Source of the DNA: a virus | Lineage: Duplodnaviria > Heunggongvirae > Uroviricota > Caudoviricetes | Length of the DNA stretch: 4,042 nucleotides | Virus record (IMG/VR): IMGVR_UViG_2671180656_000001 | Reading direction: 5' to 3' (one strand) | Shown: piece by piece, positions 1 through 3,000 of the stretch | Position numbering within the stretch: the first letter of the stretch is position 1 | How the letters are laid out: each line of letters starts with the position of its first letter | Position numbers: made by a program

Positions 1-3000
1 TTTGGAAAGATGGTGAAGAAGGTGCTTATGCGATGGGTTATGAGGATGGGCGTGACAAAACGGTAATTGCAGTAATGAAAGCCATCAGGGCCGCAGGAAT
101 CAAAGAAAAGAATTTCGATTAAGCAAATATCACTTCAATAAATCGCTTTTAAGGCATCACAATCGCTCTGTAGCGAGGTAAACGCGTGCAAGGCATGCCA
201 ATAAGCAGCGAGAATGAAAAATGCGTCAGAATGCGTTTGAGGAGGTTTTAAGAAATGAGTACGATAGCTGAGCTTGTCAGGGCTAATTTTCGTGAAGAGT
301 TGGTGCGTTGGTATCGGTATCGTTCATCGTCCAGTTTGCCGCTTGATGAGTTGTATGAGCATTCACCTGCCGCACGACGCTATCCGCGTGACCGTGTTCT
401 TCGACGGTTGTTCAAACTCAACAATGAGTTTCAGCGCAACAGAATTATCCGGAGTCTGGATTTAAAGTGAAGGAGTGAGCATGAGCGACCTATCATTAAC
501 CCAGCCAAAGCTAAAAGAATGTCCGTTTTGCGGCGGTAATGCTCGTCTGTGGGTTGAGGCCGGAATAAATATTGATGTGTGGGGCTATGCAGAATGTGAC
601 CTCTGTGAAGCCAGGGTGGCATGGGCACCATCAGTTGCTGCGGCTACTGAAAAATGGAACCGGAGAGCAGGAGATGAAGCAAACCTTTCTGCTTCGCAAC
701 GAAGCAATCAGAAATAACGCCATAGACGCCATTCTCTCACTACCCATCGACGACAAGTCACCCCACGAAGTCCACGTTAAAGAACCCAAGCGCAGCAAAG
801 CGCAGAATGACCGTATGTGGCCGATGCTGAACGATGTTTCGCGTCAGGTGCTATGGCATGGTCAACGGCTGGCGCCGGAAGACTGGAAAGACCTGTTCAC
901 TGCCCTGTGGCTTAAGACCAAAAAACTGGAGCAACGAAGTGTGCCTGGTATCGACGGTGGCGTTGTCATGCTTGGCGTGCGTACCAGCAAAATGCGAAAG
1001 GCCAGCATGACTGAGCTTATCGAAATCATGTTCTGGTTCGGCTCAGAGCGCAACGTGCGGTGGAGTGATGACTCCCGGCGAGAGTATGAATGGTCACAAC
1101 GAAAAGGTAGGGCTGCATGACTATCAAATCAAATACGCCAGCACACGACAAGGACTGCTGGCAAACGCCGCTCTGGCTTTTTGATGCGCTGGATATTGAG
1201 TTTGGATTCTGGCTGGATTCAGCTGCGAGCGACAAAAACGCTCTGTGCGCTCACTGGCTAACTGAGGCTGACGACGCGCTAAATTCTGAGTGGATAAGCC
1301 ACGGTGCAATCTGGAATAACCCACCGTACAGCAATATCAGGCCGTGGGTGGAAAAAGCCGCTGAGCAGTGCATACAACAGCGACAGACGGTAGTTATGCT
1401 TGTGCCAGAGGATATGTCAGTCGGATGGTTCAGCAAGGCTCTGGAGAGTGTTGACGAAGTTCGCATCATCACTGATGGACGGATTAATTTTATCGAACCA
1501 TCGACAGGGCTGGAGAAGAAGGGAAACAGCAAAGGCTCCATGCTGCTGATTTGGCGACCGTTCATCAGTCCTCGACGGATGTTTACTACCGTATCCAAAG
1601 CGGCATTGATGGCGATCGGGCTGGGCGTCAGGAGGGCTGCATGAGGCGACAGCGACGAAGTATCACCGACATCATCTGCGAAAACTGCAAATACCTTCCA
1701 ACGAAACGCTCCAGAAATAAACGCAAGCCAATCCCAAAAGAATCTGACGTAAAAACCTTCAATTACACGGCTCACCTGTGGGATATCCGGTGGCTAAGAC
1801 ATCGTGCGAGGAAAACAAGGTGATTGACGTGATGATTTATTCGGGGCTATATTCCTCAAACGCCAGCAAAATCTGGCGTCGGGATTGGCGTCCTGGATAG
1901 AGACCGCGACAGATACACGCCGCGAGCGTGTTTTTTATTGTCGTATGCACGCGCACATCTGAATTATGGTGGGCTGTGTGGGGGCGGAGAGATCCGCGCC
2001 GGTCGGTTTCCCGGTTACGCCAACCCTGCACAGTTCACCACCAGACGATTGGCGTCGTCGGTGGTGAGTTATTAAGAAACCACCAGAGGGCGTCATTATG
2101 ACAACTCAAATTTCTGTTGAAACTCTCTCCCCGATCACCCATAACCAGATTCCTGTTATTACCACCGAACTTTTGGCGCAGCTTTACGGCACTGAGCCGG
2201 TGCGTATTCGCCAGAATCATCATGAGAACAAAGTACGCTTCGTTGAAGGGAAACACTTTTTCAAAGTTGTTGGTAATGACCTTAAAGAATTGCGGGTAGC
2301 TTTAAACTACTCACAAAATTTGCGGGTTACTTTAAGTAACTCACAAAATTTGCAAGTGTTCGAAAAACTGGAAGACTGCTATTTCAGCCAGTGCGAGAAA
2401 AATACTGGCAAACAAGAGAAGAAGCTCAACGGGCTTTCCGCAAAAGAAACAGACAGCCTTGTATGGCTGTGGGATTATGCCAACCGCTCACAGGCATTGT
2501 TCCGTGAGTTGTATCCCGCATTAAAACTGATTCAGTCTGGCTATTCCGGCATATGCCACGACTACGGCTATGAGTTCTCGTATATCATCGGGAGGGCGAG
2601 GGGCGTTTTAATTAATCACACGCGGGATATAGATATTTATGAGCCTGACGGGCCGACGAACCTTCTGGCATGGGAAAGGCTTAAGAACAAAGAGTTGCCG
2701 CCTTCACTGCATCGCTACTGACAATTGACAACTTAACAAACCCAGCTTCGGCTGGGTTTTTTATTGCTGAATTTTCAATGTGAGAGGACATGACAATGAA
2801 TGAGCTGATAAATAGCAATGCCATCAAAATGACAAGCATTGAAATCGCTGAGTTGGTGGGAAGCCAACACGGTAATGTCAGAATATCAATAGAACGTCTG
2901 GCAAAGCGTGGGGTGATTCAACTTCCTTCAATGCAAAAAGTTGAAAATAAACAAACAATTAGCCCTAACAAATTCACAAGCGTGTATATATTCGAAGGCG

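Follow-up and report, generated by a model that had tools for sequence, protein, structure and literature searches.

The direct repeat around dam in the nin region of an Stx1-type phage: probably two instances of a standard gene junction of lambdoid early operons

The stretch of DNA analysed here over its full length of 4,042 nucleotides (hereafter the window; IMG/VR virus record IMGVR_UViG_2671180656_000001) is the nin region of a Stx1-converting lambdoid phage with 99.5% identity to a series of Stx1a phages, and our analysis concerns a 12-base direct repeat that brackets one of its genes, the adenine methyltransferase gene dam, between ninB and ninE (Table 1). Over the ninB-dam-ninE part it shares 99.3% identity with NC_004913, the reference Stx1 converting phage, to which our own open reading frame (ORF) logic was applied since its RefSeq annotation is heavily over-called. 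The order ninB-dam-ninE is the well-known arrangement of HK97 and Stx phages, and as annotation the locus is ordinary. The Dam protein is a full-length family match to the PF05869 profile (216 bits against a cutoff of 28, residues 4-168 covered), and the residues N68, P69, P70 and Y71 of its NPPY catalytic motif are invariant in an alignment of 15 sequences. At the upstream end of the segment the ninB ATG (674) lies 44 nt within the Lar-like ORF, in an out-of-frame overlap that is longer than the ATGA type found downstream.

A sequence-only reading of the window had proposed that dam is bracketed by an exact 12-mer, and both copies of AGGGCTGCATGA were indeed found on the plus strand, each at one of the two ATGA overlaps that delimit the gene. 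Both copies are read as AGG GCT GCA TGA, that is, as Arg-Ala-Ala-stop of the respective upstream protein (NinB ..GRAA*, Dam ..RRAA*), and identity ends at the edges of the 12-mer, which is preceded by ggt and followed by c in the left copy and preceded by agg and followed by g in the right copy. A Shine-Dalgarno (SD)-like AAGG/AGGG is located at 1104-1112 inside the 3' end of ninB ahead of the dam ATG (1117), and an SD sequence GGAGG at 1631-1635 inside the 3' end of dam, 5 nt ahead of the ninE ATG (1641). One repeat period measures 524 bp, and its removal in silico (deletion of 1121-1644) spared both neighbouring genes, leaving a NinB that ends ..QRKGRAA* and a whole NinE that starts MRRQRR.., just as had been predicted for an excision through the repeat. 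The related junction that had been noticed further downstream is real as well; it reads GGAGGCTGCTTAATG and follows an Ant/KilAC-like protein ending TGEAA*. RNA structure at the three junctions of the window showed nothing unusual (z +0.5 to +1.0); no occluding structure was predicted there, and none that would account for the GC-rich spacer.

Table 1. Genes and junction sequences of the window, in order of position.
Feature	Positions	Strand	Basis
DUF7301	255-470	+	ORF/Pfam
Lar-like	481-717	+	ORF/Pfam
ninB (Orf-family recombination mediator; 933W-type allele; 148 amino acids; tail ..QRKGRAA*)	674-1120	+	Pfam PF05772, E 9e-49
Left junction copy AGGGCTGCATGA: NinB Arg-Ala-Ala, TGA stop, dam ATG (ATGA overlap at 1117-1120)	1109-1120	+	
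dam (phage N6-adenine DNA methyltransferase; 175 amino acids; NPPY; tail ..GVRRAA*)	1117-1644	+	Pfam PF05869, E 3e-64
Right junction copy AGGGCTGCATGA: Dam Arg-Ala-Ala, TGA stop, ninE ATG (ATGA overlap at 1641-1644)	1633-1644	+	
ninE (60 amino acids; last gene of the presumably translationally coupled run)	1641-1823	+	Pfam PF05322, E 8e-44
Roi-like (ORF6N + P22_AR_C)	2098-2721	+	ORF/Pfam
Ant/KilAC-like (tail ..TGEAA*)	2790-3518	+	ORF/Pfam
Third junction of the same idiom, GGAGGCTGCTTAATG: Ant/KilAC-like TAA stop shares one base with the NinG ATG	3506-3520	+	
NinG (partial)	3518 onward	+	ORF/Pfam

The signal in this arrangement lies not in the existence of an exact repeat, but in the register of its copies, which occupy the same place at two successive stop/start overlaps, and in the recurrence of the junction among relatives. 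By chance, 0.58-0.83 pairs of exact 12-mer direct repeats are expected within the 4042 bases of the window, 46% of first-order Markov simulations contained at least one, and the window itself holds a second, unrelated pair (AGAGACCGCGAC at 1899-1910 and 3794-3805) that lies off gene boundaries and fits chance. The register, on the other hand, amounts to 8 nt shared upstream of the two stop/start overlaps (p ~4^-8 = 1.5e-5 per junction pair), and the junction was found again across hundreds of related loci. Exactness as such was rejected as a signal, 12-mer repeats being expected by chance in 4 kb and identity between left and right copy being rare in relatives. When the two copies were compared in 110 unique dam-bearing sequences, they differed at no position in 5, at one in 31, at two in 61, at three in 12 and at seven in 1, and the five identical pairs compare with 3.9 expected from random pairing of the observed variants. 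The copies are therefore not homogenised and their exactness is not maintained, so that concerted evolution or gene conversion between them was rejected; the 12/12 identity seen in the window is a lineage-specific coincidence of codon states. The left junction occurs in related loci as AGGGCTGC, AAGGCTGC, AGAGCTGC or CGGGCTGC followed by ATGA, and the variants of the right junction among the 110 sequences include AGGGCGGC (68), AGGGCTGC (16), AGGGCAGC (11) and ATGGCGGC (6).

Comparison of related genomes shows that dam is optional in the nin region, being present or absent exactly at this junction. It is absent from PhiR12_5, phage 21, lambda, P22 and others. In PhiR12_5 a 97.9% identical ninB is joined straight to ninE through the junction AGGGCGGCATGA, the length of the match (626 bp) being equal to 1150 - 524, and in phage 21 a lambda-type ninB allele forms a direct joint with ninE that also reads AGGGCGGCATGA. 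The lambda-type and 933W-type ninB alleles share 45% amino acid identity and are here called unrelated; the same dam (97-100% identical) was found behind both of them. Direct ninB-ninE joints with an ATGA overlap were present in 24 lambda-type and 23 933W-type loci of IMG/VR, each with one junction (AGGGCGGC, AGGGCAGC or AGGGAGGC + ATGA). It had been foreseen that relatives lacking dam would show a single 12-mer at such a joint rather than unrelated sequences. Their joints are indeed related, a single junction of the same type being shared by all 47, but the exact 12-mer was found in none of the 47, the sixth base being G or A, or the AGGGAGGC variant being present, and never T. Three dam-less 933W-type loci carry GAAAAGGGAGGGCGGCATGAG, the hybrid pattern that is expected from a crossover between left and right copy. 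Other optional nin genes, ninC and ninD, are bounded by the same type of junction, and in locus L211 the order is ninB-dam-ninC-ninE with every joint of this type.

The limits of homology between phages fall within the same few bases. In base-by-base comparison of the window with HK97, which combines a lambda-type ninB with dam, identity begins 7 nt upstream of the dam ATG (window 1110), and when the dam-ninE joint of the window is compared with the ninB-ninE joint of PhiR12_5, identity begins 10 nt upstream of the ninE ATG (window 1631). Both copies are therefore genuine mosaic boundaries, and many phage similarity matches likewise begin at window 1110 or at 1626-1648. Moreover, [A/C]GGGCNGCATGA is conserved between the two ninB alleles and any of dam, ninC, ninD and ninE. 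The proposal that the repeat is a module-boundary sequence thus holds as far as conservation between unrelated flanks and breakpoints inside are concerned; as a driver of mosaicism the repeat is a candidate, and a mobile cassette driven by it found no support. As a separate observation within ninE, 933W-type phages lose homology at window 1709-1718, where the matches H11 and H12 end, and dam-bearing loci show a dense block of linked differences from ~1706-1719 to the end of ninE (1823).

The wobble positions at the end of NinB gave additional resolution. Where ninB is of the lambda type, its final 11 nt vary at synonymous sites with the identity of the downstream gene: the tail reads gacAGGGCGGCA before ninE (24/24), ga[t/c/g]CGGGC[T/A]GCA before dam (75 loci), gacAGGGCTGCA before ninC (5 loci, the sequence of lambda itself) and ga[t/c]CGGGCAGCA before ninD (6 loci). 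With both ninB alleles the wobble base is T (in a few cases A) in combination with dam, G or A with ninE, T with ninC and A with ninD. As this base goes with the downstream gene whichever allele is present, the reassortment of the alleles involved crossovers at about -12 to -4, inside the junction, which agrees with the idea of short conserved boundary sequences taken up below. The dam-linked tail gatCGG was found at none of the 24 lambda-type empty sites, which therefore bear no trace of a recent excision from the known dam-positive haplotype.

The right copy belongs to Dam in other contexts, too. A Pectobacterium Dam that is 79% identical has the same tail, cggAGGGCTGCA, followed by a TAG stop and ninF, a Serratia Dam has the tail GGCTGCATGA ahead of rusA, and a Yersinia Dam ends ..KAA with no overlapping gene. 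The right copy is thus the conserved 3' coding end of dam itself and persists in other genera where the adjoining genes differ. Among 65 unique Dam tails from species-representative genomes an Ala-Ala end was present in 24, namely in 19/36 of those that a downstream start overlaps, the genes behind them being of at least eight kinds, compared to 5/29 of those without overlap. The idea that the Dam tail is a footprint of the ninB tail, duplicated on insertion, was rejected in view of the Pectobacterium and Serratia tails and of this survey. Homologs of NinB mostly have G-R/K-A/V-A at the C-terminus. Some predicted proteins (clusters P0001, P0011, P0014 and P0022) fuse Dam with a neighbour, as Dam+NinE of 233-235 amino acids, RusA+Dam or Dam+NinB, which suggests stop loss or frameshifts at overlap junctions in some genomes or assemblies.

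Beyond dam, the junction turned out to be a general idiom of lambdoid early operons. Lambda has an identical 12-mer between ninB and ninC (41073-41084) and close variants at ninC/ninD, ninG/ninH and bet/exo; P22 shows the idiom at ninB, ninG, ninY and ninZ, and HK97 at ninB, dam, roi and erf, the HK97 roi junction, GGGAGGCTGCTTAATGG, being the same as the Ant/NinG junction of the window. When ATGA overlaps were surveyed across 243 nin-region loci, the motif was found after about 10 unrelated protein families. At annotated stop/start overlaps, Ala-Ala-stop occurred in 12/37 early junctions of lambda, P22 and HK97, compared to 0/19 late junctions and 0/22 junctions of Mu and P2 (early versus late or non-lambdoid, 12/37 versus 0/41; Fisher P = 4e-5). 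In the 50 kb of NC_004913, ninB/dam, dam/ninE and bet/exo were the only real boundaries that matched at two or fewer mismatches. A generic SD-plus-start context, which had been named as a trivial explanation, was rejected on the strength of these three boundaries and of the coupled late, Mu and P2 junctions that lack the motif. NinE was also observed to have a conserved junction of its own in related loci (cgtgcgaggaaATGACAATG, e.g. L002 at 2256 and L073 at 3174); the genes behind it are of many kinds (NinX variants and others), all start M-T-M, and the idiom there reaches three codons into the downstream gene.

We therefore favour, with a probability of about 0.65, the reading that both 12-mers around dam represent a single standard type of gene junction used in the early operons of lambdoid phages, the claim of an idiom being based on three lambdoid genomes, two controls, the census of nin loci, and the surveys of Dam and NinB homolog tails. 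Such a junction consists of a purine-rich SD-like stretch (AGGG or GGAGG) and a following GCN GCA TGA, which provides a C-terminal Ala-Ala for the upstream protein and a TGA that overlaps the next ATG. From this anatomy, together with established knowledge of the nin chain, we infer that it would act as a point of translational coupling, with termination and re-initiation at the ATGA along the chain. As all genes of the chain start and end alike, a crossover in or beside a junction would be expected to yield intact and still coupled genes, which would explain the clean gain and loss of dam, ninC and ninD at junctions. For the joints themselves there are two options: the crossover may be directed by a microhomology of 8-12 bp, or joints of this sort may simply be those that selection has left. 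Phage annealing recombinases are known to accept very short or diverged homology (PMC2327257, PMC3945230). In addition, ninB and ninE flanks extend over hundreds of bp at 96-98% identity between related phages, so ordinary homologous exchange in these flanks is enough to move dam between them.

Several observations weigh against this reading of the repeat as a standard junction or limit its reach. The overlap junctions of late genes, Mu and P2 do without Ala-Ala, so coupling as such needs none, and the GCNGC/Ala-Ala part is not accounted for by coupling. The families behind the 12 early junctions are not independent, NinB being represented three times and NinG twice, and nine of them are distinct. 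A mosaic breakpoint lies inside ninE at ~1706-1719, and breakpoints are thus not confined to junctions. In four IMG/VR loci (L013, L061, L066 and L071) a different ORF precedes dam and is joined to the final ~27 nt of ninB; this joint is of the kind expected from illegitimate recombination, unlike a crossover at a boundary sequence. The fused remnant in these loci is a lambda-type ninB tail (..KARWGDRAA*), with the joint inside ninB. Finally, a four-gamete scan showed no hotspot at the junction, its left side being confounded by the two non-homologous ninB alleles.

The most direct competitor is that the direct repeat is an active recombination substrate, by Red/RecET-type annealing or replication slippage, through which dam is excised or inserted as a mobile cassette. 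This idea can draw on the 524-bp deletion that spares both genes and has exactly the length found in PhiR12_5, on the single junctions of the 47 dam-less loci, on the breakpoints inside the junction and on the hybrid pattern GAAAAGGGAGGGCGGCATGAG; conserved boundary sequences of short length have been suggested to exist in lambdoid phages (as reported via PMC3029335), and RecET works, at about 1e-8, with homology of 5-13 bp (PMC2327257). However, exact identity is no commoner than under random pairing, the T variant and the gatCGG tail are missing from the dam-less junctions and the lambda-type empty sites, respectively, the right copy is Dam's in genera where the neighbours differ, the nearly identical ninB and ninE flanks suffice for homologous exchange, and a crossover within ninB accounts just as well for the hybrid-looking junctions. 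Moreover, neither a recombinase or transposase nor inverted repeats or other terminal structures were found at the ninB-dam-ninE segment, in which Pfam shows NinB, Dam and NinE only and the optional part is one methyltransferase ORF. Passage of dam in or out by way of the repeat may occur, but we regard it as unlikely to be what the repeat reflects. The earlier description of dam as a mobile cassette we regard as an overstatement, the gene being optional and swapped within a series of junctions of the standard type. An origin of the repeat by chance, or as a target-site duplication from a transposition-like insertion of dam, fares far worse. Although a 12-mer repeat is expected 0.6-0.8 times and another is in fact present at 1899 and 3794, and although a flanking direct repeat superficially resembles a target-site duplication, the copies lie in register at two consecutive overlaps (~1.5e-5 per junction pair), and a match of 9-11/12 is kept in ~100 other dam loci. 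A target-site duplication would, in addition, be identical in carriers and would not form part of the coding tail of Dam elsewhere, and the transposase and inverted repeats that belong to it are the ones missing from the segment. Both forms of this explanation are refuted as far as the comparative data reach, and we give them next to no weight.

Selection could instead act on the protein, with Ala-Ala as a functional tail, e.g. a weak ssrA-like ClpXP degron, and the DNA identity as a by-product of Arg-Ala-Ala ends. The conservation is codon-like in that the wobble base varies between T, G, A and C and Ala-Ala stays, and Ala-Ala tails also occur with TAA or TAG stops or without any overlap, as in the Ant-like protein of the window, Pectobacterium and Yersinia Dam, lambda Ral and the 5/29 Dam proteins mentioned above. 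Proteins ending in Ala-Ala number 8/68 in lambda, 7/69 in P22 and 5/59 in HK97, with ~0.6 expected in each, compared to 0/54 in Mu and 0/42 in P2; they are thus about 10-fold over-represented in the three lambdoid phages, and nearly all of them are products of early-operon genes. Terminal Ala-Ala was reported to be critical, albeit insufficient alone, for ClpXP recognition of C-terminal degrons (PMC10862746). This excess, together with the codon-like conservation, points to something at the protein level. On the other hand, the residue ahead of Ala-Ala is R, E, V, D or K and not the favoured Leu, Ala-Ala is three times commoner in Dam when a start overlaps (19/36 versus 5/29), which links it with the junction rather than with the protein by itself, some of the tails (lambda ea10 and p35, P22 gp17) are GCCGCC terminator stems that extend into the stop codon, and a literature search found no stability data for these proteins. 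Selection at the protein level therefore seems to us a doubtful explanation of the repeat as a whole. A broader idea, which we put forward tentatively and hold to be somewhat improbable, is that the junction is peculiar to the early operons of lambdoid phages and serves a separate function there, either as a recombination adaptor or as a shared Ala-Ala degron; the dam repeat would then exemplify a design rule that applies across the genome and of which no description was found. As an adaptor, it would offer a universal in-frame microhomology by which annealing recombinases of the Red/Erf type could swap accessory genes with the translational chain unbroken; as a degron, the shared C-terminal Ala-Ala would give early recombination and nin proteins a short life. 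The restriction of Ala-Ala-stop to early junctions suggests an adaptor or a shared protein tail signal of this kind.

Both ATGA chaining and gene-boundary mosaicism in nin regions have long been known, and the dam repeat is a tidy and real instance of them; the confinement of the Ala-Ala-stop idiom to lambdoid early operons might be the sole part that is new. The ninR segment of lambda was described as a 'chain of interlinked genes' with ATGA overlaps (Kroger & Hobom 1982; Cheng, Court & Friedman 1995, cited in PMC8022706). The window agrees with it in operon position, in the ninB, ninE and ninG families, in the ATGA overlaps and in the 12-mer that is identical at lambda ninB/ninC, but the published description, as far as it is given in that source, concerns the ATGA, and GCNGC/Ala-Ala and the restriction to early genes do not appear in it. 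A literature search on Ala-Ala tails in lambda early proteins likewise returned no paper. Short conserved boundary (linker) sequences between lambdoid modules were described earlier (Susskind & Botstein 1978; Clark et al. 2001 for HK620, via PMC3029335). Going by that secondary account, the junction resembles the linkers as a short sequence conserved between unrelated flanks with breakpoints inside, and differs from them in that it is a coding sequence plus stop/start overlap, is variable at wobble positions and has a presumed use in crossover. Work associated with Hendrix in 1999 and, on HK97 and HK022, with Juhala and colleagues in 2000 is said to ascribe mosaic joints at gene boundaries to illegitimate recombination and selection. 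In accordance with this, HK97 itself has the order ninB-dam-ninE with the junctions CGGGCTGCATGA and AGGGCTGCATGA, optional nin genes come and go at boundaries, and the joint of L013 with its ninB remnant lies off the boundary; that model, however, needs no similarity at the joints, whereas 8-12 nt are common to most joints here. A moron, again reportedly in the usage of Juhala and colleagues in 2000, is an inserted gene with its own promoter upstream and its own terminator downstream. Like morons and mobile cassettes such as integron cassettes or homing-endonuclease genes, dam is an optional, dispensable gene between short repeats; unlike them, it has no promoter or terminator of its own, no attC-like inverted repeat and no integrase or endonuclease, and it is probably chained to its neighbours in translation. 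Between 1100 and 1650 no promoter-like or terminator-like site was found, the nearest promoter-like site being located at 1824-1853. The locus bears on the old question of whether short conserved sequences direct the formation of mosaic joints in temperate phages or whether selection filters joints that arise at random. It offers a compact and testable case, in which a single optional gene lies between two near-identical junctions and in which both empty sites and variants with 0-3 mismatches between the copies occur naturally.

Downstream of the chain, the intergenic region between ninE and roi (1824-2097) looks like a P1/P7-type C4 antisense control unit ahead of the roi/ant genes. Rfam models matched the isrK Hfq-binding small RNA at 1860-1936 (74.7 bits, gathering threshold 50) and the C4 antisense RNA at 1962-2045 (66.7 bits, gathering threshold 45), and a match to the c4 a1b1 target at 1847-1899 fell slightly below threshold; the promoter-like site mentioned above and a terminator-like hairpin (1915-1931) lie in the same region. 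Inside the Roi-like ORF a 30-bp tandem repeat was observed at 2290-2353 (2.1 copies, 85% match). Alignments of the window to its best phage matches fall into two parts, which span 4153 bp compared to the 4042 bp of the window, so relatives differ from it by an indel of ~111 bp, possibly at this tandem repeat.

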